Positions 1,095 through 33,962 of a DNA stretch of 36,076 bases are shown one piece after another. The translations under genes were made by a program, and so were the position numbers. Position 1 is the stretch's first letter, and the number at the start of each line of letters is the position of its first letter. A model generated the notes under the pieces. It did no database searches. It was not told where the DNA came from and worked only from the letters and a program-made list of their open reading frames with translations. The DNA comes from a virus (taxonomy: Duplodnaviria; Caudoviricetes), in the IMG/VR virus record IMGVR_UViG_3300025654_000023, positions 1-36,076 of that record. One strand, 5' to 3'.

Positions 1095-1877
1095 ATGGCC
1101 ACAATGCAGCAACAATTGGAGTTAGAATATCTGATGTTACAGTCAGGTATCGATAGATATAATAAACAGCTTGATGATCTAGTAGGTAAGAGTTTAAGTT
1201 CTAAAACTTTACACGGGAGAACAATCATATCAGGAGTATGTGAACCTTTAGCTGACGGCATTAAGAAATTAGTAAAAGATAAAACAAGTAACAGAGATAT
1301 TACGTACAAACTACTTCAGGGTATTAAACCTGAACAAGCAGCATACCTTACACTTATCTCAGTCATTGATAAGGTAGCCCAGAACGTACCACTATTAAAC
1401 GTAGCCCGTTTAGTTGGGGTCAACATTGAGACACAGAAGCGTCTTGATCAATGGCTTACTATGGACAAAGAGACAGCAACTAACTTAATCAACATGGCTA
1501 ACAAGAAATCAGACAAAGGTTTTGATCACAAGCGGCATGGTCTTAACCATAAGATGAAGGTTGATAACATCGACATACCTACATGGTCGGACACAGATAG
1601 AATACACGTAGGCTTACGCTTGATTGATATAGTTATACAGCACACAGGCATCGTAAGGATACGTAAGGAGTATCACAGACGCAGAGCAGTGGCTTATCTA
1701 CAAGCAACAGAGGACACACTAGATTGGATAAAGGCTTTCAATGATACAAACCAAAGTAACCTACCTCGTTACAGCCCTTGTATTATCCAGCCTAAAGATT
1801 GGACAGAGTTCTTCGGTGGTGGTTACTACAGTGACCACATAAATAAAAAACCTTTCTTGCGAGTACATGGATTATGA
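1095..1877 (+). CDS. T7-type RNA polymerase, N-terminal part (260 aa)
   Basis: AGAGGG RBS before ATG 1095. Contains QQQLELE at the N-terminus, W...DRIHVGLRLID, and PCIIQPKDW...GGGYY, matching the T7 RNAP N-terminal region. Confidence 0.9.
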   Translation: MATMQQQLELEYLMLQSGIDRYNKQLDDLVGKSLSSKTLHGRTIISGVCEPLADGIKKLVKDKTSNRDITYKLLQGIKPEQAAYLTLISVIDKVAQNVPLLNVARLVGVNIETQKRLDQWLTMDKETATNLINMANKKSDKGFDHKRHGLNHKMKVDNIDIPTWSDTDRIHVGLRLIDIVIQHTGIVRIRKEYHRRRAVAYLQATEDTLDWIKAFNDTNQSNLPRYSPCIIQPKDWTEFFGGGYYSDHINKKPFLRVHGL

Positions 1878-3532
1878 AGAAGCACGTTGAGGAATACATA
1901 GAAAAGTTTAACCAACGAGATGTTAGCGTTGAATACAAATGTGTGAACGCCTTACAACGTACACCTTGGAGAGTTAATAGTTTTGTTTGTGATGTCTTAC
2001 GTACAGCATGGAATAGCGGACAACAGTGGCAAGGTCTACCACCAAGAGACAATGCACCAGTACCACCTTATCCGTTTGCAGTTGATCCTAAGTTTCTAAG
2101 AGAAGACCAGAAGGCAGAGTTCAAAGAGTTTAAGAGTAAGCGGAACAAAATATACACGGAGAATGCACGTAACCTATCAAGACGTATACAGGTTGAGCGT
2201 ACAATCCAACTAGCAGAAGAGTATTTAGCCCATGATGATTTTTGGTTTGTATGGCAGTTAGACTTTAGAGGCCGTAAGTACCCAGTTGAATCTTTTTTAT
2301 CACCACAAAATGCTGACTACAGCAAAGCATTATTAGAATTCAGCCAGTCAGTTACTATGGACAGTGCAGCTAGTGCTAAATGGTTAGCAATTCACGGCGC
2401 TAACGTCTTCGGTGTTGATAAAGTAAGCCTAGAAGACCGAGAAATGTGGGCTTACATGAATACTGAGAACGCTATCAGTGTATATAATGATCCATTAGGC
2501 AGTAAATGGTGGCAAGAAGCTGACAAACCATGGCAAGCATTAGCATGGTGTAAAGAATGGGCAGAGTACAACATCGCCAGAGCTGCTGGAGAGCCGTATG
2601 AGACACGCTTACCATGTGCTAGTGATGGTTCATGTAATGGCTTACAACATCTCTCAGCGATGCTCAGGGACTATGAGGGCGGTAGAGCTGTCAACCTTAC
2701 ACCTAGCAAAGAACCACAGGATATATATTCTGATGTTGCAACTAAAGCTACAGCCTTGTTAGAAAAAGAGGGGACGTTGATGGCTAGGCAGCTACTTGAA
2801 ATAGGTATATGCCGTAAGATATGTAAGCGACCAGTAATGATTGTCCCTTATAGTGGCACACGTCACTCATGTAGGGACTATATCATGGAGGCTTTAGAAG
2901 AAAAATGTAAAGGACGTAACCCTTGGGGTGACAACTTCTTTCAACCGTCTCTTTATTTATCAGGTTTTGTTTGGCAAGCAATCAGTGAAGTAATTGTCTC
3001 AGCTTTTGATGCAATGAAATACATTAAAGATATTGCAAAGCTATACGTAGAGAATGGTTTATCCTTTAGTTGGGAAACACCTACAAACTTATTAGTAAGG
3101 CAGCACTACCCTAACAGTACGTCTAAGCGTGTGAAGTCACACCTTAACGGATCGTTGGTGTCACTGCGATACAGAGAGACTGATGATACTTCTATCGACA
3201 AGCGTAAGATGTTATCAGGAGCAAGCCCAAACTTTGTACACTCTCTTGATGCAGCAGCGTTGACTATAACTGTAAGCAAATGTTTAGACGCAGGTATAAC
3301 TGACTTTGCTATGGTGCATGACAGCTATGGGACACACAGTCCAAACATGCCACTACTAAACGATGAGCTACGTAAAGCCTTTGTTGAGATGTACGAGGAG
3401 CATGACGTGCTTCTTAATCTCTACACAAGCGCAGTAGCTACATTACCGAAAGAGGTATTAGTACCACCTCCACCAGTCAAAGGTACTCTTGATTTAAAGG
3501 AGGTGCTACAAAGTGATTACTTTTTCGCCTAA
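1874..3532 (+). CDS. T7-type RNA polymerase, catalytic C-terminal part (552 aa)
   Basis: Motifs DFRGRKYP, DGSCNGLQH (motif A), RKICKRPVMIVPYS (motif B), NFVHSLDA (motif C) and C-terminal YFFA. Confidence 0.95.
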   Translation: MKKHVEEYIEKFNQRDVSVEYKCVNALQRTPWRVNSFVCDVLRTAWNSGQQWQGLPPRDNAPVPPYPFAVDPKFLREDQKAEFKEFKSKRNKIYTENARNLSRRIQVERTIQLAEEYLAHDDFWFVWQLDFRGRKYPVESFLSPQNADYSKALLEFSQSVTMDSAASAKWLAIHGANVFGVDKVSLEDREMWAYMNTENAISVYNDPLGSKWWQEADKPWQALAWCKEWAEYNIARAAGEPYETRLPCASDGSCNGLQHLSAMLRDYEGGRAVNLTPSKEPQDIYSDVATKATALLEKEGTLMARQLLEIGICRKICKRPVMIVPYSGTRHSCRDYIMEALEEKCKGRNPWGDNFFQPSLYLSGFVWQAISEVIVSAFDAMKYIKDIAKLYVENGLSFSWETPTNLLVRQHYPNSTSKRVKSHLNGSLVSLRYRETDDTSIDKRKMLSGASPNFVHSLDAAALTITVSKCLDAGITDFAMVHDSYGTHSPNMPLLNDELRKAFVEMYEEHDVLLNLYTSAVATLPKEVLVPPPPVKGTLDLKEVLQSDYFFA

Positions 3533-9910: not shown

Positions 9911-10044
9911 CTAACGAAGTAAAAGAAGACAAGTGTAGAGCTTGTTATGGCACAGGATTATATGGTTATGAACCCCAAGGTGATGGTTTGTATAAGGCTG
10001 CAAAGCCATGTCCAGTTTGCATGGGAGTAGGCACGAATGGATAG
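9907..10044 (+). CDS. Small DnaJ-type zinc-finger protein, 45 aa (not in ORF track)
   Basis: MTNEVKEDKCRACYGTG...CPVCMGVGTNG has two CxxCxGxG motifs; ATGA overlap with the mazG stop. Confidence 0.8.
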   Translation: MTNEVKEDKCRACYGTGLYGYEPQGDGLYKAAKPCPVCMGVGTNG

Positions 10045-11944
10045 TTATCAGCAGTACATACACAAGTCACGTTACGCACGTTGGAGAGAAGACGACAACA
10101 GACGAGAGACGTGGGCAGAAACAGTCCAGAGATATATTGATTTCTGGAAGGGACGCAAACAGCTAGATGAAGCAACAGGTAAGAAACTTTATGATGCTAT
10201 CTACAACCTAGAAGTAATGCCCTCTATGCGCTGCTTAATGACAGCAGGTGTTGCACTTGATCGTGACAACATGGCTGGCTTTAACTGCTCATACATAGCA
10301 GTAGATCATATCAGAGTGTTCGATGAAATATTATACGTATTAATGTGTGGCACTGGTGTAGGCTTTTCAGTCGAACGTCAGTCTGTAAATAAACTACCAG
10401 AAGTAGCAGAGGAATTTAATGAAACAGATACTACGATCCATGTTAGCGACAGTAAAATTGGTTGGGCTAAAGCTTTCCGTGAGCTGGTTAGTCTTTTGTA
10501 TTCGGGTCAAGTTCCTAGTTGGGATATTTCTAAACTACGTGGCAAAGGCGAAAGACTCAAGACATTCGGGGGTCGTTCTAGTGGCGCTGATCCTCTTGTT
10601 GCTCTTTTTGATTTTACAGTTAGCACTTTCAAAGGTGCTGCTGGTCGAAAGCTAACGAGTATCGAATGCCATGATATTGTATGTAAAATTGCAGAGATTG
10701 TTGTCGTGGGTGGCGTTCGTCGCTCTGCGCTTATTAGTCTGTCTAATCTTTCTGATGATCGGATGCGTCATGCTAAGTCGGGTAATTGGTGGGAAACTGA
10801 TACGCAACGTGCGCTCGCTAACAATAGTGCAGTGTATGATGAACGCCCTGACTTCGAGACGTTCCTAGAAGAGTGGACAGCTCTCTATAAATCTAAAGCA
10901 GGTGAGCGTGGTATCTTCTCCCGCAAGGCAGCAAAGAAACAATCAGCCCGTCACGGACGTAGAGATATTGAGCACGACTTTGGGACTAACCCATGTAGTG
11001 AGATCATCCTACGCTCTGCACAGGTTTGTAATTTGTCGGAAATCGTTATTCGTAGTACCGATACATACGGAGATTTAAAACGTAAGGTTGAGCTTGCTAC
11101 AATCCTTGGCACCCTACAGTCTTCTTTAACAGACTTCCGCTACGTGCGTAACATCTGGAAGAAGAACACACAGGAAGAGTGCTTGCTCGGTGTAAGTATG
11201 ACAGGCATCATGGATCATCCAGTAATGTCAGGACAACAAGATTCAGGTACGTGGTTTGATCACCCTAACCTGCCTATCTTACCTGAGATACTAGAGCGCC
11301 TTAAAGCTGTAGCTGTAGAGACCAACAAGAAGTGGGCAGAGAGTTTAGGTATTAATCAGTCTACGGCTATTACCGCCGTGAAACCAAGCGGTACTGTATC
11401 ACAGTTAGTGGATAGTGCGTCAGGTATACACGCTAGGTTCTCAGCTCAGTACATACGAACAGTACGTAGTGATGGCAAAGATCCTATCTCAGCCTTCCTC
11501 AAGGACGCTGGAGTGCCTTGGGAGAAAGATGTAATGAATGAGGATAACTATGTGTTCTCGTTCCCCATAAAGGCTCCTGCTGGCTCTACGAGCGTTGATG
11601 ACCTTAACGTACAGACACAGCTAGACTTGTGGGAAATCTATCAGAACCATTGGTGTGAGCATAAGCCTAGTGTGACTATTTATTACTCAGATGAGGAGTT
11701 CCTTGCAGCAGGTCAGTGGCTGTGGGATCGACTAGATAGTTGTTCAGGTATTAGCTTCTTGCCCCGCACAGATCATGTGTACAAGCAAGCACCTTACACA
11801 GCTATTACGGAACAAGCTTATGACGAAGCCTTAGCTAAAATGCCAGAGACTATTAACTGGAATGACTTGGGTAAGTTTGAAACAGAAGACACTACAACCG
11901 GTACGCAAGAACTCGCTTGTGTAGCAGGGCAGTGTGAAATATAG
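10037..11944 (+). CDS. nrdJ: Class II (adenosylcobalamin-dependent) ribonucleotide reductase
   Basis: FNCS, LMCGTGVGFS, GGVRRSALI, TNPCSEI, VKPSGTVSQL, WCEHKPS and C-terminal CVAGQCEI; no beta-subunit gene follows. The class call comes from family resemblance only. Confidence 0.85.
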   Translation: MDSYQQYIHKSRYARWREDDNRRETWAETVQRYIDFWKGRKQLDEATGKKLYDAIYNLEVMPSMRCLMTAGVALDRDNMAGFNCSYIAVDHIRVFDEILYVLMCGTGVGFSVERQSVNKLPEVAEEFNETDTTIHVSDSKIGWAKAFRELVSLLYSGQVPSWDISKLRGKGERLKTFGGRSSGADPLVALFDFTVSTFKGAAGRKLTSIECHDIVCKIAEIVVVGGVRRSALISLSNLSDDRMRHAKSGNWWETDTQRALANNSAVYDERPDFETFLEEWTALYKSKAGERGIFSRKAAKKQSARHGRRDIEHDFGTNPCSEIILRSAQVCNLSEIVIRSTDTYGDLKRKVELATILGTLQSSLTDFRYVRNIWKKNTQEECLLGVSMTGIMDHPVMSGQQDSGTWFDHPNLPILPEILERLKAVAVETNKKWAESLGINQSTAITAVKPSGTVSQLVDSASGIHARFSAQYIRTVRSDGKDPISAFLKDAGVPWEKDVMNEDNYVFSFPIKAPAGSTSVDDLNVQTQLDLWEIYQNHWCEHKPSVTIYYSDEEFLAAGQWLWDRLDSCSGISFLPRTDHVYKQAPYTAITEQAYDEALAKMPETINWNDLGKFETEDTTTGTQELACVAGQCEI

Positions 11945-12721: not shown

Positions 12722-14299
12722 ATGACAATGACCGAGAAAGGTGTAGCACACGCCTACGAAAATATGGAAGCAGATCGTGATGTCTTTTTAACGAGGGCAA
12801 GGGCGGCTGCTGAACTAACCATACCGACTTTAATGCCTCGTGACGGTCACACCTCCTCTACCCAATACGACACACCTTTCCAAGCTGTAGGTGCTAGAGG
12901 TGTAAACAACCTCGCATCAAAACTTCTAATGACACTCCTGCCTCCTAACAGTCCGTTCTTTCGTTTAACGATAGATGACTTTGACTTAGTTGAGTTAGCA
13001 GGGGATGACGCTAGAGGTAAGGCTGAAGATGCTTTAGCTCGTATTGAGCGTTCAGCCGCACAGCTTGTAGAAGCCAAGGCTATCCGAGTACCAGCTTTCG
13101 AGATGCTCAAGCAGCTTATCGTTAGTGGGAATGCTCTTGTACATATGCCTAAAGATGGGGGGATGAAAGTCTTCCGTCTTGATAGTTATTGCGTCAAGCG
13201 TGATACTATGGGCAACCTACTTAAAATCGTTGTCAAAGAGACAATCGCTTTTGAAGCTCTCCCTGACATTGTTAAGGCAGCTTTAGTAGAGAATGAAGAG
13301 TACATCGCACAGCAAGATAAAAGAGAGTGTGAACTCTACACCTGTATTAAACGAGAAGATAAAAAGTTTGTTGTACATCAAGAGGTACATGGTGAAATTA
13401 TACCTAAGTCTGAAGGCAGTTATGCAGCAGATAAACTACCGTGGTTAGCTTTACGTTTCATTGCTATTGATGGTAACGATTACGGACGCTCTTTCGTGGA
13501 AGAGATTATCGGTGATCTAAAATCATTAGAAGCTCTGACTCGTGCTATCGTAGAAGGAAGCGCAGCTAGTGCTAAACTTCTCTTCATGGTACGACCTAAC
13601 GGTACAACTAAGATACGTAACATTGCAGACTCTGCTAATGGTGCAATCATCTCAGGTGATGCCAATGATGTTACTACATTACAAGCAAATAAATTTAATG
13701 ACTTCCGAGTAGCTCAAGAAACAATGCAAGTAATCACTGAACGCTTGTCTTTTTCTTTCTTACTTAACAGCTCAGTCCAGCGCCAAGCTGAACGTGTGAC
13801 GGCTGAAGAAGTACGCTACATGGCACAAGAACTAGAGACTGCTTTAGGTGGTATCTACTCTGTCTTATCTCAAGAATTCCAACTCCCCCTTGTTAACCTA
13901 CTGCTCGCTAAGATGCAGAAAGAAGGCAAGATGCCCAAGTTTCCAAAAAATACCTTAAAGCCTCAAATCGTAACTGGTTTAGAGGCACTAGGTCGTGGGC
14001 AGGATCTTAATAAACTATCAGCGTTCTTGGAGTACCTCCAACCTTTAGGCCAAGAGATAATTCAACAGAACCTAAACATTGATGATTACTTAGATCGCTT
14101 AGGCGCATCACTGGGTATTGATACTCAAGGTTTAATTAAGTCTCCTGAACAGAAAGCAGAAGAACAGGCAGCAGCAGAAGCTAAGATGCAGGAACAACAG
14201 CAACAACAGCAGATGATGCAGATGGCTGAGAAGGTTGCCCCTACCGCTGTTAAAGGTATGGTAGAAGGCGCACAACAACAGCAACCTGTGGAGGAGTAA
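12722..14299 (+). CDS. Head-tail connector (portal, T7 gp8-like)
   Basis: QAVGARGVNNLASKL, YGRSFVEE, AERVTAEEVR and GLEALGRGQD motifs. Confidence 0.96.
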   Translation: MTMTEKGVAHAYENMEADRDVFLTRARAAAELTIPTLMPRDGHTSSTQYDTPFQAVGARGVNNLASKLLMTLLPPNSPFFRLTIDDFDLVELAGDDARGKAEDALARIERSAAQLVEAKAIRVPAFEMLKQLIVSGNALVHMPKDGGMKVFRLDSYCVKRDTMGNLLKIVVKETIAFEALPDIVKAALVENEEYIAQQDKRECELYTCIKREDKKFVVHQEVHGEIIPKSEGSYAADKLPWLALRFIAIDGNDYGRSFVEEIIGDLKSLEALTRAIVEGSAASAKLLFMVRPNGTTKIRNIADSANGAIISGDANDVTTLQANKFNDFRVAQETMQVITERLSFSFLLNSSVQRQAERVTAEEVRYMAQELETALGGIYSVLSQEFQLPLVNLLLAKMQKEGKMPKFPKNTLKPQIVTGLEALGRGQDLNKLSAFLEYLQPLGQEIIQQNLNIDDYLDRLGASLGIDTQGLIKSPEQKAEEQAAAEAKMQEQQQQQQMMQMAEKVAPTAVKGMVEGAQQQQPVEE

Positions 14300-15009
14300 T
14301 GGAGTATAACGAAGCATTAGGTGCAGGACTTGTACAACAGTTCTATGATAATCGACCTAGAGTTAATTATGCAGAAGAAGACCCAGCGTTTGTTAAGCAG
14401 CCTTACAAAGTCCACTATGGACAAGATGCTATTAATGAAGTGACTAAAAGGGAAGGCCAACTTACTCCCCCAATGGAAGCTGTTATCAGAGAGGAAGGTT
14501 TCGTGGATGGCGTGTATGAAGACACTAAAGGTATAAAAACTTCAGGTGTTGGTCAAACAGGTGGATACATGAATATGACCTTTAGAGAAGCCTTCTTAGA
14601 TCACGAAAAATTAGTTAAGGATATTATACCTAATTTTATGATTTTTGATGACAACACACAAGCTCAGTTATTATCACTAGGTTACAGAGGTGATACTAAA
14701 TCTAAAAAAGGCAAACCTCTTAAATGGGTAAACTTATTTAATCAAGGTGAGTACGCTCTAGCGGCTGCTGAACTATTAGATCATAAAGAATACAAAGATC
14801 TAGTGAAAAAGTTTGAAGAAGAGGGTGAAGACAGTGGTATCATCCACCGTTTAGAAGCAGCAGCTACTCAGATAGCAAGTTTACAAGCAGCCCCTCGTGA
14901 AGAGGAGGTTGAGGAAGAAACTTTTTCTAATGCTTTCCGCAAAGCCAGCAAAGAAGGTGCTAAAACTTTCGACTGGAATGGTAAATCTTATAGCACTAAA
15001 CAAGCTTAA
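14299..15009 (+). CDS. T4-type (GH24-like) lysozyme with C-terminal extension
   Basis: EEGFVDGVYEDTKGIKTSGVG gives E-x8-D-x5-T catalytic spacing; also NQGEYALAAAELLD. Confidence 0.8.
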   Translation: MEYNEALGAGLVQQFYDNRPRVNYAEEDPAFVKQPYKVHYGQDAINEVTKREGQLTPPMEAVIREEGFVDGVYEDTKGIKTSGVGQTGGYMNMTFREAFLDHEKLVKDIIPNFMIFDDNTQAQLLSLGYRGDTKSKKGKPLKWVNLFNQGEYALAAAELLDHKEYKDLVKKFEEEGEDSGIIHRLEAAATQIASLQAAPREEEVEEETFSNAFRKASKEGAKTFDWNGKSYSTKQA

Positions 15010-17582: not shown

Positions 17583-20500
17583 ATGACGTTAGTTTCTAAA
17601 AATATCCCTAACCTCATTAACGGGGTTTCTCAACAACCGCCCGCTTTGCGTTTAGCAAGCCAAGCAGAAGCACAGGAAAACGGTTTCTCTGATATTGTTG
17701 ATGGATTGAAGAAACGTCCACCTACACGATTAAAGAATAAGTTAAAGAAAACATCTCCAACAGGTACAGCTTACCTCAGTGTTGCTGAGCTTAACAGATC
17801 CCATTTCCATACCTATAAGAGAAGCACGTTTGAACAGTACACAGTTGTGACTGATCCTGTAGTCCCTAAGATGTATGTATACGATATTGAGGGCAGTCTT
17901 AGATACGAGTCTGGTGTAGCAAGTTGGGATGCGACTGGTACGCAAATAACAGACTCTGATAACAGTGATAACACAACCCTAGCTGCTTACTTAGGTACTG
18001 ATGCTATCAATAGCACACAAGTAACTGCAACCTCTGTTGCGGATTACACGTTCTTTGTTAATAAAGATAAAGTAGTTGCAAAGAATACTACGACTCCTTC
18101 CTTTGTAAGACCGCATGAAGCTATCATTTACATGAAGGTAATGAACTACGGTAAAGATTACAAATGGAGGGTAAGTAGAGATAATGATCCTTTAACTGCT
18201 GCTGATGATACTTGGAGTGGGGCGTATGGACAAGCTACCACACTAGATGGAGGTGGAGGAGATGCACATTACGAAGTACAGGGTTTAAAAACAGGTGATT
18301 TCTTTGATATTACAGCAGGAGGTTCTACCGTAAGTCCAGATATACTCGGCAACCAAGTCGTTCTAGCTGATTCAGCTTTAATTGCACAAGGACTTACTAA
18401 AAAGAGAGAATCAGGAAACCCTTTTGTTGTTATAGAAACAACAGGCGCTAATGATGCTGATTTTAAAATTAAAGTAGATGATGATAACGGCGGTAATGAT
18501 TTATTCGGATTTAAAGATCGGTGTAAAAACTTTATATCTCTTCCCCAATACTGTGTTGATGGTTTTACTATACAAATTAATGGAGATAACCAGAAGAAAG
18601 AGGATGACTTTTACGTTACGTATGAAGGATCAAATACAGCAGGTACATGGAAAGAATGTGCAGCACCTTCACGCCCTAACACACCTGTCTACCACACGTT
18701 TGACACAGCAACAATGCCTCACACATTATCACAGAATGCTGACCTAAGTTTTACTTTTGGTGCAAGTACATGGGATGAAAGAAAGTGCGGCGATGAAGAT
18801 ACAAACCCGTTCCCAAGTTTTGTTGGCAGTAAAATTAACAGTGTGTTCTTCCACCGTAATCGTTTAGGTTTCCTATCAGATGAGAATGTTATCTTTAGTG
18901 AAGCCAGTAGTTACTTTAACTTCTTCCGAGTCACAGTAAGAAGCTTACTTGATACAGCTCCTATTGATTTAGCGGTTAGCCAGAATGAGGTATCTATACT
19001 TAAAGCTGCTGTACCTGCTCAAGATGATTTAATACTCTTCTCCGATTTAACACAGTTTACTCTATCTGCTGACTCGCTCTTAACACCCTCAGAGGTTATT
19101 GTAGATCAATCAACAAAGTATGAGTGTGATTTAACATCGACTCCCGTTGGTGCAGGAACAAGTGTATTCTTCACTACTAAGAGTGGTGACTACTCAGGTG
19201 TCCGAGAGTTCTTTACTAAAGATGAGACTGAGAACAAAGATGCTCCGTCTATTACATCACACGTTCCTGAGTATTTAAACGGTACAGTAAGACAAATGAT
19301 AGCGTCTTCTAATGAAGACATGCTCGTTTGTTTGACTGAGGCCAATAAGAAAGAATGTTACGTGTACAGATGGTACAACTCTAGTGAAGAACGAATTCAA
19401 AGTTCTTGGTCTAAGTGGGTATTTGATAAAGAGATAAACCACGTATTTTTTAACAATGCTGAATTAACCGTGATCTTTAGTGATGGTGGTTTTGAAGAAA
19501 TATCTTTAGCCTTTAATGATGTCGATATAACTTATAGCGAAACTAACTCATTCTCTAGTGCAGTTACTTTAGGTACAGCTACTTTGGACTTTAACGGTGT
19601 TCCTCATACTCTTAAAGGAGTAAATACAGTTGTAGGCGATGTGCCTCTTGTGGGGTCTACTTCTAACTCAGATGTTCAGGCTGTTTATGTTTACAAGAAC
19701 ACCTTAGCCAGTACTTATGGTATGTATATTCAACTAGGATTATTAAGTGTAACGGGCGGTGTAACAAACCCAGCTACACCAGCACAACTGCCTACCTCAA
19801 TTACAGTGGGTGGACACACTATACCTATCCCTAATTGGCAGGGTTTGGGTAACGTAAACTTTCCTCACATATCTACAACCCTTGTGCTTACAGCGCAGGA
19901 GTATACTGATTGGTTAAATGTTACTTCTCCGACAGAGGAGTTAATTATTAATATCCCTGAGACTGCTGTAGAAACCTCTGCAAAAGCAAGTGACGTATTA
20001 CTAGACCACCGAGTTAAGGTAACTCAACTTCAAGGTGATAGTGAATTCAATATATCTGACCTTGATGCTCAGTTTGCTTCTACTACTGCCTCCCAGTATA
20101 TAAACCATAAAGGGGATGTTATAGCTATAGGTAACACAGACGCTGAAAAGGACAAGGTTGTAAACTTTATAAACAATAAACAACATAAAGAAAATGGAGT
20201 CCTCGTAAACAATTACGTTACCGCTGGAGAACCTTATATCTTTAAATACAAACTTTCCGAGCAAGTGTTTAAAGCAGGTGATAAGGATCCCACACGTATG
20301 GCTCGTTACCAGTTAAGAAGTATGCTTTTCAACTACACCAACACAGGTAGTTTTGAGGCAACTGTTGCATCAACAGGTAGAACAGATAAAGTAACTAACT
20401 TTACTGGTCGTATCTTAGGGCAATCTACTAACATCTTAGGATTCTCTCCTGTGGTTGAAGACGGTTCACTTAAAGTTGGTATACAGTCTCAAGCAGCAAC

Positions 20501-20597
20501 AACAGATATAACTTTAACTAACGACAGTCACCTACCCAGCACGTTCCAAAATGTTGAGGTAGAAGCCTTCGTAACTCTACGAAATAAAAGGATATAA
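17583..20597 (+). CDS. Tail tubular protein B (T7 gp12-like nozzle), enlarged
   Basis: IPNLINGVSQQP, GLKKRPP, VADYTFFVN, NPFPSFVG, FFHRNRLGFLSDENV and QSSWSKW motifs; 1004 aa. Confidence 0.93.
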   Translation: MTLVSKNIPNLINGVSQQPPALRLASQAEAQENGFSDIVDGLKKRPPTRLKNKLKKTSPTGTAYLSVAELNRSHFHTYKRSTFEQYTVVTDPVVPKMYVYDIEGSLRYESGVASWDATGTQITDSDNSDNTTLAAYLGTDAINSTQVTATSVADYTFFVNKDKVVAKNTTTPSFVRPHEAIIYMKVMNYGKDYKWRVSRDNDPLTAADDTWSGAYGQATTLDGGGGDAHYEVQGLKTGDFFDITAGGSTVSPDILGNQVVLADSALIAQGLTKKRESGNPFVVIETTGANDADFKIKVDDDNGGNDLFGFKDRCKNFISLPQYCVDGFTIQINGDNQKKEDDFYVTYEGSNTAGTWKECAAPSRPNTPVYHTFDTATMPHTLSQNADLSFTFGASTWDERKCGDEDTNPFPSFVGSKINSVFFHRNRLGFLSDENVIFSEASSYFNFFRVTVRSLLDTAPIDLAVSQNEVSILKAAVPAQDDLILFSDLTQFTLSADSLLTPSEVIVDQSTKYECDLTSTPVGAGTSVFFTTKSGDYSGVREFFTKDETENKDAPSITSHVPEYLNGTVRQMIASSNEDMLVCLTEANKKECYVYRWYNSSEERIQSSWSKWVFDKEINHVFFNNAELTVIFSDGGFEEISLAFNDVDITYSETNSFSSAVTLGTATLDFNGVPHTLKGVNTVVGDVPLVGSTSNSDVQAVYVYKNTLASTYGMYIQLGLLSVTGGVTNPATPAQLPTSITVGGHTIPIPNWQGLGNVNFPHISTTLVLTAQEYTDWLNVTSPTEELIINIPETAVETSAKASDVLLDHRVKVTQLQGDSEFNISDLDAQFASTTASQYINHKGDVIAIGNTDAEKDKVVNFINNKQHKENGVLVNNYVTAGEPYIFKYKLSEQVFKAGDKDPTRMARYQLRSMLFNYTNTGSFEATVASTGRTDKVTNFTGRILGQSTNILGFSPVVEDGSLKVGIQSQAATTDITLTNDSHLPSTFQNVEVEAFVTLRNKRI

Positions 20598-27486: not shown

Positions 27487-28287
27487 ATGGCACTTTCATA
27501 CACTGAATACGTAGCTGATGGATCAACTTCAATGTTTCCATCTAAGCTATACTTACGGCCTGAGCATCTGGTTGTTACCGTTGACACTGTAATTCAAACG
27601 ACCTCAGCCTATACAGTAGAACAAACTCAAGTAACTTTTAATTCCCCACCTCCTGATGGAGCTGTAGTCCGTATAGGGAGAAACACGAGCCAAGAGGGGC
27701 GTTTAACAGACTACCGTGACGGCTCATTATTAACTGCGGATGTACTAGATAATGATGCTTTCCAGTTATTCTATATGGCTCAAGAGGCTTTAGATGCCGC
27801 TATAGATATTATGCCGCTACGTGCTTCTTACGAAGAAAGGTTACTACTTCTTGAGAACGCAGTAGCCTCGCTTGGTGGCTCTACTGGTGGCGGTGTTAGC
27901 TCACCTAATAGAGTAACCTTTAATGTTCAAGAGGCTACTTCAGCGTTTAACACGTCTTTTGACTTAGTATCAACCACTCTAGTGTTTTTAAACGGTGTGT
28001 TATTAGTAAACGGAATCGATCTCACCTTTCAAGCAAATAGACAACTGAACCTAACTACCCCCGCAAATAACGGCGATGTTTTAGAAGTAGTTGGCTGGTC
28101 GACTGTGCCTACTGTTACTCCTGCTCCTGCTCCCGATCCTAATGAACCTGAAACTGTTCGTACTGATACCCCTCTTGTGGATTCGGAAGGTAAAATAATC
28201 TTCGCTAAAGACTATGAAGAACCCCTTACACGTGTCAACATGGACTACACAGTGGCCCAGATTAACACAAAACTAGGACCACTATAA
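27487..28287 (+). CDS. Short tail fibre / adaptor with T7 gp17-type N-terminal attachment domain
   Basis: Y.ADGST..F, VVRIGRNT, DYRDGSLLTADVLD and QLFYMAQEA; then a VFLNGVLL domain; only 266 aa. Confidence 0.85.
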   Translation: MALSYTEYVADGSTSMFPSKLYLRPEHLVVTVDTVIQTTSAYTVEQTQVTFNSPPPDGAVVRIGRNTSQEGRLTDYRDGSLLTADVLDNDAFQLFYMAQEALDAAIDIMPLRASYEERLLLLENAVASLGGSTGGGVSSPNRVTFNVQEATSAFNTSFDLVSTTLVFLNGVLLVNGIDLTFQANRQLNLTTPANNGDVLEVVGWSTVPTVTPAPAPDPNEPETVRTDTPLVDSEGKIIFAKDYEEPLTRVNMDYTVAQINTKLGPL

Positions 28288-30143
28288 TGAAAAAGATGAA
28301 CAATTTGGCAAGCCAAAGCCAAGCTACAAGCAATAACACAACTAAATTATATCACATCGTATTGAAAGAAGGTGTAGATAAAAACTTGTACTTTAACAAA
28401 GTCACTTCTGTTGTAAAACCCCTCAATGACCAACCTGAGACTTTCAAAGCTTTATGTACTAAAGAACAGGCAAAAACTTTATGGGGAGACCCTCAAGTAA
28501 AATGTGCAGTAGATACAGATAAAGTAACAGACAGTGTTTCTGAGCTAGTTACAAAACAAGTCGTTGTTAAGCGTCTATCAAAAGAACACGTTGGTGAACC
28601 ACCTGTAGTTGATGGAGGTTGGGATTATGCAGGTAATTGGGGCTTAATCAGACACTCTAGTCGTACAAACAACATAACCACAAACAATGTGAAGAGCACA
28701 GAGACGTTCTCGTCCAATTATGATGGCACAGGTGTAGATTTAATTCTATTAGGTCGCTCCCAACTAACTGCCGATGATACAGAATTTATGAAAGCTGACG
28801 GCTCTTCAAGACTCCAGCAGTTTCAGTGGAATAGTTTAGACGGGTTGAGCGATCTACCCGCTATAGATTATACTTTTGTTGAGAATAATATTCACACTCA
28901 TTCTGAGTTTGTTCTATATTGTGCCGCTGGTAATACTTATGGTTGGGCAACAGGGGCAAACGTCTATGTCTGGCCCACAGAAACAATGAATGCGGGTGGT
29001 ATAAATACTTGGGACTCCTTCGGACATATTCAAAAGTTCCACGAAACTAAGATAGCAGCGGGCAATACTCGCCCTACCGTACTTGTTTGTTCATTAGGTA
29101 TGAAAAACGATCTTGATCAGGAAGATGGTCTTATGCAAGGGCTAGTGCTTCGAGATAAGGTATACACAAATATAAGTCCTTCAGGTTCGGGTGATGCCCA
29201 TGTATCTAGTGTAAATAAAAACACAAACGGTTCCTTTCCTAGAATGGCCTCACACGTTATTGGTTATTATGCTAATGAGGACGAAAAACCTGAGCTTTTT
29301 GCTGCTATTGATAGTAAAGACCATGCTGCTGTCAAGGCTATTTTAGATGACCCCTCAGAAAACCCTTACCATGTTTTAGGTGCAGGAAAATGTCAAGCCA
29401 TGATGGACGCTGGTGTGCATTATGTAAAAGCAGCGGGCAATTCTTCAGAAAGTGTAGTGAATCTGGGGCATCCTGATTATAATAACTGCCATATAGGTAT
29501 GTGGACTGATACTAATGAATACTTTGCAGATAGACGTTATATAGCTTCAAACTCCAGACCAGATGGGCTACTGGGCTGTCCTGACTCAATCAATGTTGGG
29601 GCTTTGTCTTCTGATATGATGCACAACGAAGGCCAAGAAAAATTAGCAGGTTTTAGTGTTCGAGGTGTAGGTATTGATTGTGTGGCTGTGGGAGAAGATC
29701 TAATGCTTACTTCTCACTCTCGTTCTGCGGTGTATGCAGATTCGCCATCATTAGACGGCGGCCCTTATCTTGTACTTACATCGGGAACTTCCTTCGCTTC
29801 TCCTCAGATAGCTGGAATGGCTTGTTTAGTTTTAGAAAAATACCCAACAACTACACCTAAACAAATGAAGAGGTATTTTAGGTATATCGCTGTTGGTACT
29901 GATAAACTTTTAGATGCTTATCCAACCGACTTAGCCGAGTCTACTAAGTATGGAGATGCGCCTTATTATTCTTCAGCAGGTTTACACGGCTACTCAGGCA
30001 ACATCGCTTATTTAGACCCCACTCTTGACTTTGATCCAACATCTTTGGAGGATACTTCTATTAACTACCCTACGGTGACTGTCACGGATACGTCCTTAAA
30101 TCACACAGTAGCACAAGTTAATACTAAATTAAGCGGTATATAA
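28287..30143 (+). CDS. Subtilisin-like (S8) protein 1, tail module
   Basis: DGTGVD, H...GNTYGWA, AAGNS, INVGAL, FSVRG and SGTSFASPQIAG motifs; N-terminal segment resembles an I9 propeptide. Confidence 0.85.
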   Translation: MKKMNNLASQSQATSNNTTKLYHIVLKEGVDKNLYFNKVTSVVKPLNDQPETFKALCTKEQAKTLWGDPQVKCAVDTDKVTDSVSELVTKQVVVKRLSKEHVGEPPVVDGGWDYAGNWGLIRHSSRTNNITTNNVKSTETFSSNYDGTGVDLILLGRSQLTADDTEFMKADGSSRLQQFQWNSLDGLSDLPAIDYTFVENNIHTHSEFVLYCAAGNTYGWATGANVYVWPTETMNAGGINTWDSFGHIQKFHETKIAAGNTRPTVLVCSLGMKNDLDQEDGLMQGLVLRDKVYTNISPSGSGDAHVSSVNKNTNGSFPRMASHVIGYYANEDEKPELFAAIDSKDHAAVKAILDDPSENPYHVLGAGKCQAMMDAGVHYVKAAGNSSESVVNLGHPDYNNCHIGMWTDTNEYFADRRYIASNSRPDGLLGCPDSINVGALSSDMMHNEGQEKLAGFSVRGVGIDCVAVGEDLMLTSHSRSAVYADSPSLDGGPYLVLTSGTSFASPQIAGMACLVLEKYPTTTPKQMKRYFRYIAVGTDKLLDAYPTDLAESTKYGDAPYYSSAGLHGYSGNIAYLDPTLDFDPTSLEDTSINYPTVTVTDTSLNHTVAQVNTKLSGI

Positions 30144-30170
30144 ATTTTAAATTAAACAAAGGAAACACAA

Positions 30171-30437
30171 ATGACACAATTATCAAATGATAACACTCCA
30201 TACAACCCTAAGATGGGTGATGGGTCACGAGGTTTAGTTCAGTTTGTAAAAGGAAGCTCTGATGGTTATCTTTATGGTAGCTTAAACGGAGCTGACTACG
30301 TACTGATACACACCTTTGCTGAAAGTGAAATGAAAGAACTAGCTCTACCGCCTTTTGTTCTTATTGGGGGTAGTGCCACAGACCCCGCAGTTGACTTAGG
30401 TGCTACTTCAAAGGCTTATCTTAGTGAGACGAGGTAG
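30171..30437 (+). CDS. Hypothetical tail-module protein
   Basis: AAGGA RBS; 88 aa. Confidence 0.75.
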   Translation: MTQLSNDNTPYNPKMGDGSRGLVQFVKGSSDGYLYGSLNGADYVLIHTFAESEMKELALPPFVLIGGSATDPAVDLGATSKAYLSETR

Positions 30438-30439
30438 AT

Positions 30440-31036
30440 ATGGCTCTTATTAAAGATGTAGTCCAACCGTTTGTAATTGATCCTATACATGCTGTAATGC
30501 CTTTAACTCCCTCACCTCGTGGTGGGGGTTTTTATAACCAAATGGCCGCTAATACTAGCTCTCTTATAGACTCTACAACTGTAACAAGTGGCACTGCTAA
30601 CATATTTGGAAACATTTATTCAGGGTACGGCTCAGGTTATCAAAGTTACCACGGCTCAAGAAGTCCATCCACTATCGATCTAGCTGATGGTGTTACGCAC
30701 GGTGTTGAAGCAATGCGTCAACATAACAACAAGTTTGAATTTACGTTAGGGGCTAACTCATCTCAATATGCAGGCGCTCTTGACCCAGCAGGTGGTGTTA
30801 CTAACTCAGACGCAGCAGCATTTAAGACAATTAAGCTGTACAACGTTACGGGTGGCGGTGCTGGATACTTAGTGCTTACCCTTGAGAGGGAAGACATACC
30901 TTACAGTCCGTATACTAAAACAGGTTTTTATGACGGCACTACACAAAGTCTTAAATTCCCTTCATGGAAACAAACAACGGGTGAGCTAGGTGATTACTTT
31001 GCTAACCAAATAATAAGAGTAGAACTCTGGAGTTAA
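30440..31036 (+). CDS. Hypothetical Gly/Ser/Thr/Tyr-rich protein, possible receptor-binding module
   Basis: GAGG RBS; beta-rich composition; within the tail module. Confidence 0.7.
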   Translation: MALIKDVVQPFVIDPIHAVMPLTPSPRGGGFYNQMAANTSSLIDSTTVTSGTANIFGNIYSGYGSGYQSYHGSRSPSTIDLADGVTHGVEAMRQHNNKFEFTLGANSSQYAGALDPAGGVTNSDAAAFKTIKLYNVTGGGAGYLVLTLEREDIPYSPYTKTGFYDGTTQSLKFPSWKQTTGELGDYFANQIIRVELWS

Positions 31037-31037
31037 T

Positions 31038-31559
31038 ATGGCACATTCAGTAAGAAAATTAACCAGTGTCTCTTCAGATGATATTACTCGTTTGTTTGAG
31101 GACTGTAAAACTAAAATACTAGAAGGTACTTTACCCTTTGATGGTACGCCTACGGAAGCGGATGCAGCGGTATACTTTAACATAGGTATTCCTAACGTCC
31201 TTGCGTTACCTCAAGGTGAAGTCTTTGGTTACTTTAAAGATGATCACCTGTGCTTTATACGTTATGCTTTAGTCACTGATGGTGTCTTAGAGCAGTCTTA
31301 CTACCTTGCAGGAAACGATGCAGAAGGTAGCAGGGCTTACTTATATTCACAAGAGTTTGCTGATGCGCTTAAAGCGTACTACCAAGCTAACTTTACATCA
31401 GTAGACTCGTGGGCAATCGCTGGTAAATCTACAGCTACCTATGAAGAGGACGTACTAAAACCTAACCTATACGAGACAGCAGGAGTTAGTTACGTCAAAG
31501 AAGACTTAACTGATCCAGTGTCTAATATAACTTACGAAAAACGCACGATTACTTTTTAG
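31038..31559 (+). CDS. Hypothetical protein (possible degenerate GNAT fold)
   Basis: GGAG RBS; 173 aa; the fold guess comes from sequence pattern only. Confidence 0.65.
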   Translation: MAHSVRKLTSVSSDDITRLFEDCKTKILEGTLPFDGTPTEADAAVYFNIGIPNVLALPQGEVFGYFKDDHLCFIRYALVTDGVLEQSYYLAGNDAEGSRAYLYSQEFADALKAYYQANFTSVDSWAIAGKSTATYEEDVLKPNLYETAGVSYVKEDLTDPVSNITYEKRTITF

Positions 31560-31571
31560 AGGTAACTCATT

Positions 31572-32177
31572 ATGACTAAGGCAAGAACCTTAGCGGATTA
31601 TGTACCGTTTGATCCAACGGGGTTGCTTACGAGCGACTCTGCTTTAGACGCAACAAAACTTACAGGCGATCTACCAGCTCTTGATGGGTCGGCACTGACT
31701 GGCTTAGACACTGGTGAAAGACTTACCCACGCATCTTGGTGGTATCTAACTGAGGACTTTTCAGACTCGGCAGTCCCAATAACTTCTAATTTATCAGAGG
31801 GTATAGCAATGGGAAGCCCTATGATAGAAACTTCAGGTGTCTTCACATTCCCTTCAACAGGGATTTGGCATGTACATTTTCACTGTGGTTGGTTTGGGAG
31901 TACTGATCAAGCAGAGTGGCTAAACGCACGAATACGACACACGGCTGATGGTCAGCTTTCGTGGCAAGGTATAGCTTCTGGCACATCTACAATCCAAAAA
32001 ACATCGACAGGTACTCAAGCTACTGTTGATACGATTATTAATGTAACAGATGTAACTAACCATAAAGTTGCTTTTGCTTCGGAGGTAGAAGAAGTAACCA
32101 TAACAACAAGGGGTGCTAGTGGCAGCCCTAAACATACATATATGACTTTTATCCGCTTAGGCGATGCCGTCGAATAA
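31572..32177 (+). CDS. Tail fibre-like protein with C1q-like head
   Basis: MTKARTLAD N-terminus, LPALDGSALTGL and SGVFTFPSTGIW motifs, as seen in marine phage fibre proteins. Confidence 0.7.
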   Translation: MTKARTLADYVPFDPTGLLTSDSALDATKLTGDLPALDGSALTGLDTGERLTHASWWYLTEDFSDSAVPITSNLSEGIAMGSPMIETSGVFTFPSTGIWHVHFHCGWFGSTDQAEWLNARIRHTADGQLSWQGIASGTSTIQKTSTGTQATVDTIINVTDVTNHKVAFASEVEEVTITTRGASGSPKHTYMTFIRLGDAVE

Positions 32178-32185
32178 AGGACAAC

Positions 32186-32207
32186 ACATGGACGACCTAA
32201 AACAACA
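32186..32207 (+). repeat. Degenerate direct repeat of the 5' end of the gene at 33964
   Basis: ACATGGACGACCTAAAACAACA vs ACATGGACGATTTGAGACAACA (33962-33983), 18/22 identical; MDDLKQ vs MDDLRQ. Confidence 0.75.
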
Positions 32208-32225
32208 AACAATTAGGAGCGCTTA

Positions 32226-33962
32226 ATGAAAAAGTTTCATTTAATATTTAAGAAAGAAGTCGAAAAAGAAGCCTACATAATTAAAGTTTCTAATGTGCTC
32301 GATTTTTGCAAACACCAAAAGAAAATAATGGATGTTGAAGCCACAGAGGAGCAAGTGAAGCTTCTTAAAAAAGACCCAAATGTCCTAGATTTGTTACCTG
32401 AAGAATTTTGGCTAACCGAAGTGAATGAAGCCACAAAAGATGTTTATTACAACAGACCTTCATGGAACAACGAAAAATTTGAAACTGATTTCGGTAATTG
32501 GGGCTTAATTAGACATTCGAGTTTAACTGACGTGGGTACTAGCGATACACCAGTCACAGCAACGTATGAATATAATTACGATGGCTCAGGGGTTGATATT
32601 ATATTAAACATAGCCTCAGTCTTAAACCGCAATGATCCTGAATTTAAAACAGGTGGGGTTAGTAGGCTCCAACAGTTCCAATGGAATACTTTAGCTGATT
32701 TTGAAGATCTTCCTACTATAGATTATAGCAGGACAGGGCAGGGGGTGTCTAAGAATGTTGGCATAGACGACCACGCTGAATCCGTTTCGTATTGCGCTGT
32801 AAGTAACACTTATGGTTGGGCAACAGGGGCTACCGTATACATATACCCTAGAGATCAAATGGATGCGGCTGGAAAATCCTTAAGAAGTTATGGTTGGCAA
32901 GCTATGCAAAAATTCCATGAAACCAAGGGTAATAATCGACCAACCCTAGTCATAGATGCAATAGGCTACTCTGCCACGAATATTATTGGCCACTATGCTG
33001 AGAACATTTTTTATAGAGGTACAACTTATACATCTGTCGCTCCTGCTGGCGCTTCTGAACAAAAAGTTCCACTTATGGCGGAAGCTGGTAGTGGGAAAGA
33101 ATTTGGGATGCCACACTCGAACAGCTACACCTCAACTGGATTTGTATCTGACCCTGATGAACTCATTCCACAGATGACTGACGTAGAGAAAAGAGCGTTC
33201 TTCGAGGATGATGTCAATAATATTTATTATGGTCTTTATGGCGAAGGTATTGATAATATGGTAGCTGCGGGTGTACATCATGTAACATCAGCAGGTAATA
33301 ATTCAGATGCTTCCCACTTAAAAGGCCACCCTGATTATGCTAATAACTATAAAAGAGTTGCAGATGTAACAACTGATGGCGTTCATACAAGATACTTTTG
33401 GTATATGCTGCATGGCAGGGGTAATCCAACCTATGAGGGTGATACAATAGTGGTTGGTGCTTTGGCACAATCATCCAGTGCTGAAGGTTTTGATGGTAAA
33501 GAACACTTTGCACAGTTTTCTACCAGAGGTTCTAGAGTGGACGCTTGTGCTGCTGGAGATAACATTAGGCTTAATATGTATTCTAATGGAGAATATATTG
33601 CTAATGGCACATCTTTTGCAAGCCCTAACGTAGGAGGCATGGCAGCGCTTGTACTTGGAAAGTATCCAACAACTACTACTAAACAATTAAGACGGTATTT
33701 CAGGGAACAAGCTGTTGGTACAGACAAGCTACACGAAGGAAATGAAAATTTAGCTCCAAGTTCTAAATATGGTGATCCACTGTGGTTTGCTCAATCAGGT
33801 GGTTTTGGTTACTCAAATAACATTGCTTATTTAGATCCTGATTTAACCTTTGATCCTACAACGCTTCCTGACACAGCCATTGCGGATTATGTTCCAACTA
33901 CTTCGGATATTCACTTAAATTACACAGTAGATGAGATTAATACGAAATTAGGGGCAATTTAA
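32226..33962 (+). CDS. Subtilisin-like (S8) protein 2, paralog of 28287..30143
   Basis: Shares GNWGLIRHSS, SRLQQFQWN, NTYGWATGA, AGN, GTSFASP and KYPTTT with protein 1. Confidence 0.85.
   Translation: MKKFHLIFKKEVEKEAYIIKVSNVLDFCKHQKKIMDVEATEEQVKLLKKDPNVLDLLPEEFWLTEVNEATKDVYYNRPSWNNEKFETDFGNWGLIRHSSLTDVGTSDTPVTATYEYNYDGSGVDIILNIASVLNRNDPEFKTGGVSRLQQFQWNTLADFEDLPTIDYSRTGQGVSKNVGIDDHAESVSYCAVSNTYGWATGATVYIYPRDQMDAAGKSLRSYGWQAMQKFHETKGNNRPTLVIDAIGYSATNIIGHYAENIFYRGTTYTSVAPAGASEQKVPLMAEAGSGKEFGMPHSNSYTSTGFVSDPDELIPQMTDVEKRAFFEDDVNNIYYGLYGEGIDNMVAAGVHHVTSAGNNSDASHLKGHPDYANNYKRVADVTTDGVHTRYFWYMLHGRGNPTYEGDTIVVGALAQSSSAEGFDGKEHFAQFSTRGSRVDACAAGDNIRLNMYSNGEYIANGTSFASPNVGGMAALVLGKYPTTTTKQLRRYFREQAVGTDKLHEGNENLAPSSKYGDPLWFAQSGGFGYSNNIAYLDPDLTFDPTTLPDTAIADYVPTTSDIHLNYTVDEINTKLGAI

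Follow-up and report, generated by a model that had tools for sequence, protein, structure and literature searches.

The window analysed here is a stretch of 36,076 nucleotides (nt) of a tailed phage (Caudoviricetes; positions 1 to 36,076 of the IMG/VR record IMGVR_UViG_3300025654_000023), and the subject of this analysis is a pair of adjacent plus-strand genes in it, a tail fibre gene and a gene for a protein of the subtilisin-like S8 family, together with a second S8 gene on the same strand further downstream. The fibre of 266 amino acids (aa) (27487..28287) is of the short T7 gp17 type and has both the tail-attachment domain and the position after the internal virion protein genes: residues 4-111 (27496..27819) match PF03906 (E 1e-21) and the tail fibre family phrog_2710 (E 4e-27), and the gene follows that of the large internal virion protein. 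Beyond residue 111 family searches gave no match, and there is just a beta-rich part of about 65 aa (140-206), followed by a Pro/Thr/Asp-rich linker (residues 208-225, 28108..28161) that joins the fibre body to a C-terminal module, here called the anchor (residues 230-266, 28174..28287), in which a D-S-x-G turn segment precedes a helix. The fibre stop codon overlaps the start codon (TAATG) of the gene for S8 protein 1 (28287..30143, 618 aa, PF00082 E 5e-13), the putative cognate of the fibre anchor, and S8 protein 2 (578 aa) is encoded at 32226..33962; PF00082 is above its cut-off in both. All three proteins end in a shared tail of 15 residues, which was found exactly where the earlier note had placed it, at 28240..28287 in the fibre (a predicted helix, low-confidence model), at 30096..30143 in S8 protein 1 and at 33915..33962 in S8 protein 2, and which in each case runs to the stop codon.

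When a looser six-frame pattern was applied to the window, only the same three tails were detected in open reading frames (ORFs), along with one chance match on the minus strand. S8 proteins 1 and 2 are paralogues (39% identity over 620 columns, tail included), and for this reason the match between their tails is not independent evidence; the informative match is that of the fibre to the S8 proteins. Against a profile of 45 S8 tails in which no fibre was included the fibre tail scored 24.2 bits, whereas among 2000 shuffled versions of the fibre the highest score was 5.4 bits. The conserved unit in the fibre is not the 15-residue motif as such but residues 230-266, as delimited by the anchor alignment; the fibre anchor scored 36.4 bits against an anchor profile made without the window row, its turn segment by itself reaching only 6.1 bits, i.e. 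being divergent in this phage. In the alignment of relatives the anchor comprises about 38 residues with two D-S-x-G-type turns, a short strand and the shared helix, and in several relatives it is preceded by Gly/Ser/Pro/Asp-rich linkers. The linker that had been described as leading into the motif does exist in the fibre, but about 22 residues intervene before the helix. A model of a 45-aa anchor placed a helix at 35-42 with low confidence (mean predicted local distance difference test score, pLDDT, 69.8). Since the anchor and S8 profiles have only their last 19 columns in common, the anchor is regarded as a module of its own. Pfam holds no family for the anchor or for the tails, no counterpart of the anchor was found among solved structures (best E 0.088), and its matches in the Atlas were under 0.9 and without names.

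A probable recombination scar lies close by, at 32188-32226, and would suit the explanation that the tail reached the fibre by recent recombination, as a leftover of a protease gene that has no function, a possibility that the earlier note had itself raised against its proposal. At the residues that the fibre tail has in common with the S8 tails only 2/8 and 4/9 codons are identical, so that the tail is not a recent DNA copy. Against a remnant stand, besides these diverged synonymous sites, the short stretch of 19 common columns, the retention of the tail in a fibre 86% identical to that of the window (P0107) and the recurrence of the same anchor type on unrelated carriers, which belong to 13 scaffold families. 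The remnant is thereby largely refuted and exceedingly improbable, and the motif common to a virion protein and S8 proteins stands as a conserved, selected feature at the protein level.

The survey covered 54 viral, 74 metagenomic and further loci. The pairing of anchors and S8 genes was counted over 153 loci with 11,073 ORFs as distinct pairs with both ends visible, loci with truncated ends being excluded, and with an anchor profile made from 16 viral anchors, the window row left out. The anchor ends the directly upstream gene in 37/41 distinct pairs with a tagged S8 protein, i.e. one bearing the shared tail, compared to 3/42 pairs with other S8 proteins. A co-occurrence of the motif on virion proteins and enzymes in related phages, for which the earlier note had suggested a profile search, was thus observed. 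Nineteen of the 37 anchor-positive pairs are not rows of the training alignment, three of these 19 being close variants. The four tagged pairs without an upstream anchor are S8 protein 2 of the window, L062, and the frameshifted L116 and L148, where the 'upstream ORF' is the first half of the S8 protein itself; the three anchor-positive pairs among the others (L126 and L148, where the S8 protein ends early, and L146 with a divergent tail) belong to the same clade but are broken or divergent. The gap between the carrier gene and the S8 gene amounts to -1 to 7 nt in 27/29 pairs. In IMG/VR, a strict DNA pattern (motif plus stop codon) gave 25/25 matches in S8 contigs and a looser one 33 matches, namely 12 S8 ends, 10 anchors ahead of an S8 gene and 11 chance frames; both exact patterns detect just the commonest motif variants. 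An anchor without an S8 gene was seen neither among the loose-pattern IMG/VR matches nor in the surveyed loci. GTDB genomes yielded 0 motif matches and no confirmed S8 relative, and therefore no clue to a prophage or host, and GenBank phages yielded only 6 records, all of them distant cyanophage S8 proteins. The protein search with the anchor profile returned 28 proteins; P0253, P0277 and P0278 were rejected as anchor carriers, being false positives that match just via D-x-x-G turn repeats.

For the grouping of the carrier proteins, 29 selected pairs were compared by BLAST after removal of the last 60 residues, which resulted in 13 families and, in addition, stand-alone anchor proteins of 58-59 aa. 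In 27 of the 29 pairs the anchor is fused in frame to a larger protein. The carriers include T7 gp17 fibres (window, L111), a Mu gp48 protein beside baseplate J (L031), collar fibres (L043, L139), PAAR proteins (P0276, E 6e-11; L164, weak), proteins with cadherin repeats (L029, L030, L159), a LamG protein (L061), a PKD protein (L118) and a GH10 protein with Ig domains from the hub region of a T4-like phage (L048 5248-7659), whose virion would present a glycanase next to a subtilase. The cadherin, LamG, PKD and GH10/Ig carriers reside in tail or head gene blocks, and in T4-like phages some unnamed carriers are flanked by the gene of the gp5 hub on one side and by a PAAR or gp25 gene on the other. 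The arrangement is not podovirus-specific. A read-through from a fibre into a stand-alone anchor was considered as well and rejected: the two are in frame, yet the TAA codon and a GGAG ribosome site argue for a separate gene. Two further features concern N-termini. The start M[TS][KQ]AR[DT]L is common to otherwise different tail-region proteins (window 31572-32177; L039 3575-4090; L043 9147-9998; L115 5221-5895; L133 4513-5055; L139 948-1757) and is possibly a second, N-terminal docking tag. Anchor carriers with an M-x-[RG]-L-G start (L029 7720-9995; L061 8693-9979) come after a gene of 90-99 aa in podovirus head/tail blocks, with which they possibly form another attachment pair.

The existence of stand-alone anchors, the tight translational coupling and the lack of an export signal on the S8 proteins (no signal-peptide-like stretch was seen in either S8 protein of the window) would be in line with the anchor being an intracellular chaperone, inhibitor or recruiting tag, by which the S8 protein is kept quiet or brought to process a tail part in assembly, without being retained on mature virions. 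A free inhibitor, however, needs neither the in-frame fusion to larger proteins of 13 families nor the flexible linkers past which the anchor is often placed, the S8 protein already bears an N-terminal propeptide-like domain, and a maturation protease would be expected to keep to one substrate family. A purely intracellular function is accordingly rated as quite unlikely.

Fibres of the gp17 type are trimers anyway, while PAAR and Mu gp48 occur as single copies per spike or wedge. The former would agree with the tail being a self-oligomerisation helix only, which forms separate homotrimers, so that the genes would travel together without any binding between their products; for the latter carriers trimerisation would be needless, and the consistent presence of a tagged S8 gene next to the anchor in the IMG/VR scans and surveyed loci also speaks against it. 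The T-x-x-[QE] start of the tail fits the N-capping beta-layer with the YTKxE motif of homotrimeric phage fibres, and the known beta-layers are all three-chain, either homotrimers or a pseudo-threefold SLH domain (Hartmann et al. 2016, PMC4786415). In the beta-layer as in the shared tail, a short amphipathic helix comes after an aromatic-T-x-x-[QE] sequence, whereas here two different proteins have the motif at their very ends. The agreement with the beta-layer rule is partial: beta3 is D/N/T/S in 29/29 anchors and g is D/E/Q in 24/29 (29/29 and 29/29 in S8 tails), but a hydrophobic beta1 was found in 2/29 anchors and 0/29 S8 tails, and K/R at the e-position in 0/29 and 2/29, respectively. Because these two features are missing, a trimer is treated as no more than a possibility. 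Self-oligomerisation as the only function of the tail is improbable.

The AlphaFold2 model of S8 protein 2 (mean pLDDT 85.8) corresponds to the subtilisin fold, with a Z score of 31.2 and a root-mean-square deviation of 2.4 over 269 aligned positions when its residues 69-540 were compared with 2b6n (VIA-align). The model consists of a small propeptide-like N-terminal domain (1-68), the proteinase-K-like domain (69-540) and the tail (541-578), the predicted last helix (568-576) lying outside the catalytic domain with lower confidence. Residues 1-58 were modelled as strand-helix-strand-strand-helix-strand, which raises the question of an I9 propeptide; Pfam gave no match there. In S8 protein 1 His205, Asn385 and Ser502 are retained and Gly156 occupies the column of the catalytic Asp; in S8 protein 2 these are His183, Asn358 and Ser463, with Ile129 at the Asp column and Glu185 two positions after the His (His+2). 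The designation of both as proteases thus holds for the fold and the retained His, Ser and Asn, but the missing Asp makes it uncertain, and on the basis of their sequences the two are subtilase-fold homologues and not canonical subtilisins.

The same active site recurs across the tagged S8 proteins, counted as 73 after three tagged fragments without that region had been left out. Asp or Glu occupies the catalytic-Asp column in 0/73 of them compared to 148/162 untagged relatives, and His (72/73), the nucleophile Ser (73/73) and the oxyanion Asn (73/73) are retained. The His+2 residue is Glu in 66/73 tagged S8 proteins and in 0/134 Asp-type relatives; it may assist the His, or it may merely cap a helix. 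A Glu at the catalytic-Asp column itself is absent from the tagged clade and present in 14 untagged relatives; Glu-His-Ser subtilases are a class on which the literature search turned up no paper. The 65 closest S8 homologues all have the motif at their end and more distant ones do not, a count that is partly circular since 45 of the 65 built the tail profile. In a tree calculated with a quick method from 60 rows with the last 45 residues removed, all tagged S8 proteins fell inside one branch with 99% support, together with some untagged rows; those inspected (P0067, P0128, the L134/L160 group) have the Asp missing or a Glu in its place.

The systematic loss of the Asp is what would be expected if docking and display took place and the S8 protein were a catalytically dead or self-cleaving-only binder, in effect a protease fold turned into a receptor-binding adhesin. 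Non-catalytic subtilase folds exist in C. difficile CspC and mature PCSK9, structures of which turned up in this analysis. Moreover, an untagged sister lineage that also lacks the Asp encodes the propeptide-like part in a gene of its own, 66-71 aa long and directly 5' of the catalytic-domain gene (L134 5726-5926, L136 63-263, L160 710-925, L161 5718-5930, L162 384-599), which might follow from poor self-processing. A dead binder does not account well for the near-invariance of His, Ser and oxyanion Asn across sequences that are only about 37-39% identical, and the switch from Thr to Glu at His+2 goes along with the Asp loss and may compensate for it, although a plain helix capping box fits too. 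Display of such a binder is considered unlikely. Tandem S8 genes were also observed in the T4-like phages L006-L023 (e.g. L006 9863-13035), where they follow a baseplate-fibre connector gene and have Glu in the first and Asp in the second at the catalytic column.

The observations on gene pairing, tight spacing, the anchor on 13 unrelated scaffold families, the subtilase fold and the altered active site can be combined in one proposal, to which we assign slightly better than even chances: the genes form a two-gene cassette of unrelated marine phages, in which a virion protein ending in an anchor of about 38 residues would likely hold the neighbouring subtilase by its matching C-terminal helix and in this way display it. 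The anchor helix and the S8 helix would pack together, possibly in a short three-chain bundle, with additional contacts from the turn segment of the anchor, and the complex would sit on a flexible tether at a fibre end, a spike tip or the baseplate. Physical binding between anchor and S8 protein is highly probable, display of the S8 protein on the virion is likely, and for the display of an active enzyme the chances are evenly balanced. Further points in favour are the lack of a signal-peptide-like stretch in both S8 proteins of the window and the '(virion protein)' label on a distant, untagged relative with the Asp in cyanophage S-SCSM1. In the less supported step, the enzyme would keep a slow or Glu-assisted activity and cut a host-surface or matrix protein during adsorption. 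Slow cutting is preferred as the role since selection still maintains His, Ser and Asn; the role of the displayed protein is nevertheless the weakest step of the explanation, and a pure binding role is its main rival.

Several points weigh against the proposed cassette. Besides the absence of Asp or Glu at the catalytic column of all tagged S8 proteins, the tagged S8 proteins inherited both the Asp loss and the tag within a single lineage, and hence the counts do not represent independent events. The virion role of several carriers without a family match was deduced from gene position, and the stand-alone anchors of 58-59 aa, which have their own ribosome site (L039/L040, L047), contain no recognisable virion domain. 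Two intact tagged S8 proteins, S8 protein 2 of the window and that of L062, are without an upstream anchor. The more alike two S8 proteins are, the more alike are their anchors (Mantel rho 0.38, 0/5000; with one pair per family rho 0.30, 87/5000), which fits a cassette moving as a unit, but linkage could give this signal too. Cognate tails are barely more alike than shuffled pairs (665/20000; 818/20000 with one per family), and linkage alone can explain their likeness.

A bolder version, which is tentative and has clearly less than even chances, would make the anchor a universal plug-in tag. The 38-residue anchor would be graftable by recombination onto virion parts of any kind, such as a podovirus fibre, a myovirus spike tip, the baseplate or a capsid-side protein, and would capture, in a pseudo-symmetric three-helix bundle, a new class of subtilases in which a Glu next to the His replaces the Asp; marine phages would thus carry surface proteases, and in the phage studied here one anchor and two enzymes would form a heterotrimer. 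The module itself is real, conserved, apparently undescribed and broader than the earlier note had recognised; no description of the cassette was found in the literature searched, most subscription papers being outside its reach. The enzymes of phage virions have so far mostly been polysaccharide depolymerases and wall hydrolases. If phages of several morphotypes do mount a protease-fold protein on fibres, spikes and baseplates by means of a portable tag, they would have a new way of acquiring virion functions, marine infection would be likely to involve barriers or gels made of protein, and a very small docking pair would be at hand. The Asp-less site with conserved His, Ser and Asn poses a separate question of enzymology, and both subjects are testable with recombinant pieces and without a cultured host.

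The gene of S8 protein 2 is located between a gene with an MTKART start (31572..32177, plus strand), which encodes a protein of 201 aa without an anchor and possibly with a C1q-like domain (a lead only, from 21% of one Atlas cluster), and an XhlA-like gene (33964), and it has no anchor gene of its own. At the corresponding place in L115 the MTKART-start protein does bear the anchor and is combined with a tagged S8 protein. Directly ahead of S8 protein 2 lies a 12-codon plus-strand remnant of an XhlA-like gene start (32188..32226), of which 31/36 nt match the XhlA-like start of L040 and 19/36 nt the copy of the window itself; this is the probable recombination scar mentioned above, which is most simply explained if recombination placed a gene without an anchor ahead of S8 protein 2. 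In that case S8 protein 2 would have lost its own anchor gene and would probably depend on the fibre anchor; this single anchor would serve S8 protein 1 and probably also protein 2, and one anchor with two S8 tails would suit monomeric carriers, e.g. PAAR. Among 88 loci with tagged S8 genes only this phage and near-identical contigs have two of them. The initial picture of one fibre with two proteases therefore does not describe the general form, which is one anchor gene and one S8 gene. For P0003 and P0036, which are 60% and 66% identical to the two S8 proteins of the window, an ENA contig of 7600 bases is listed in both cases, a possible hint at a further phage with two such enzymes. Between the two S8 genes an ORF of 88 aa is located on the plus strand (30171..30437), homologues of which (47% and 38% identical) lie 3' of the tagged S8 gene in the podoviruses L040 and L047.

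Judged from its gene content, the window is a T7-like podovirus genome, with genes for RNA polymerase, primase-helicase, polymerase, portal, capsid, tail tube, nozzle, internal virion proteins, the gp17-type fibre, holin and terminase. The nozzle protein (17583-20597) is only 29-40% identical to those of the nearest isolated phages; it has 1004 aa, and the profile of 794 positions matches it in two stretches; an insertion of about 200 aa after residue 635 may represent an extra surface domain. The T7-like RNA polymerase is encoded by two ORFs, an N-terminal one of 293 aa (996-1877) and a C-terminal one of 552 aa (1874-3532), which overlap in ATGA and look like a coupled two-subunit enzyme, not a frameshift. 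Flanked by the portal and scaffold genes, an ORF of 236 aa (14299-15009) matches phrog_37474 (unknown function, E 4e-28) and resembles a lysozyme-type domain by eye, a Pfam search being without a match, and 10037-11944 encodes a Class II (B12-type) ribonucleotide reductase.

Homologous counterparts are the S8 peptidases that T4-like cyanophages encode (S-SCSM1 YP_010669921.1, S-CREM1 SCREM1_165 and S-H38; phrog_9158), and the S-SCSM1 record labels its S8-containing protein '(virion protein)'. In the available parts of the respective papers, 45 virion proteins of S-SCSM1 were identified by mass spectrometry, the detection of the S8 protein not being confirmed (PMC9602691), an S8 peptidase is listed in two cyanophages with nothing further (PMC3037559), and an S8 protein is not mentioned (PMC9964418). 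The cyanophage proteins are homologous to the tagged S8 proteins (24-26% identity) and are likewise encoded among baseplate and fibre genes; they differ in retaining the Asp-His-Ser triad and in lacking both the tail motif and an anchor 5' of the gene. Cargo effectors of the type VI secretion system on PAAR/VgrG and the cohesin-dockerin display of enzymes share with the cassette the principle of a small portable module that would load an enzyme on a scaffold, PAAR included. No sequence relation to them was found, the tag here is near-symmetric between the partners, and in contrast to both systems it was seen only in phage contexts (0 matches in GTDB genomes). A functional parallel is provided by branched receptor-binding systems such as the K1-5 gp37 adapter, KP32 gp37/gp38, G7C and the CBA120 tailspikes, where, as is proposed here from the genes, a virion-anchored fibre bears a second, unanchored enzyme via a docking element encoded next door. 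What these systems are known to carry is a trimeric depolymerase of polysaccharides that docks via its N-terminus, whereas here the cargo has a subtilase fold, the shared element is C-terminal and both partners use a look-alike C-terminal helix. By analogy, the cassette would work like a branched receptor-binding adapter, yet it is not a member of those systems, its anchor moving across morphotypes among fibres, PAAR proteins and parts of the baseplate.

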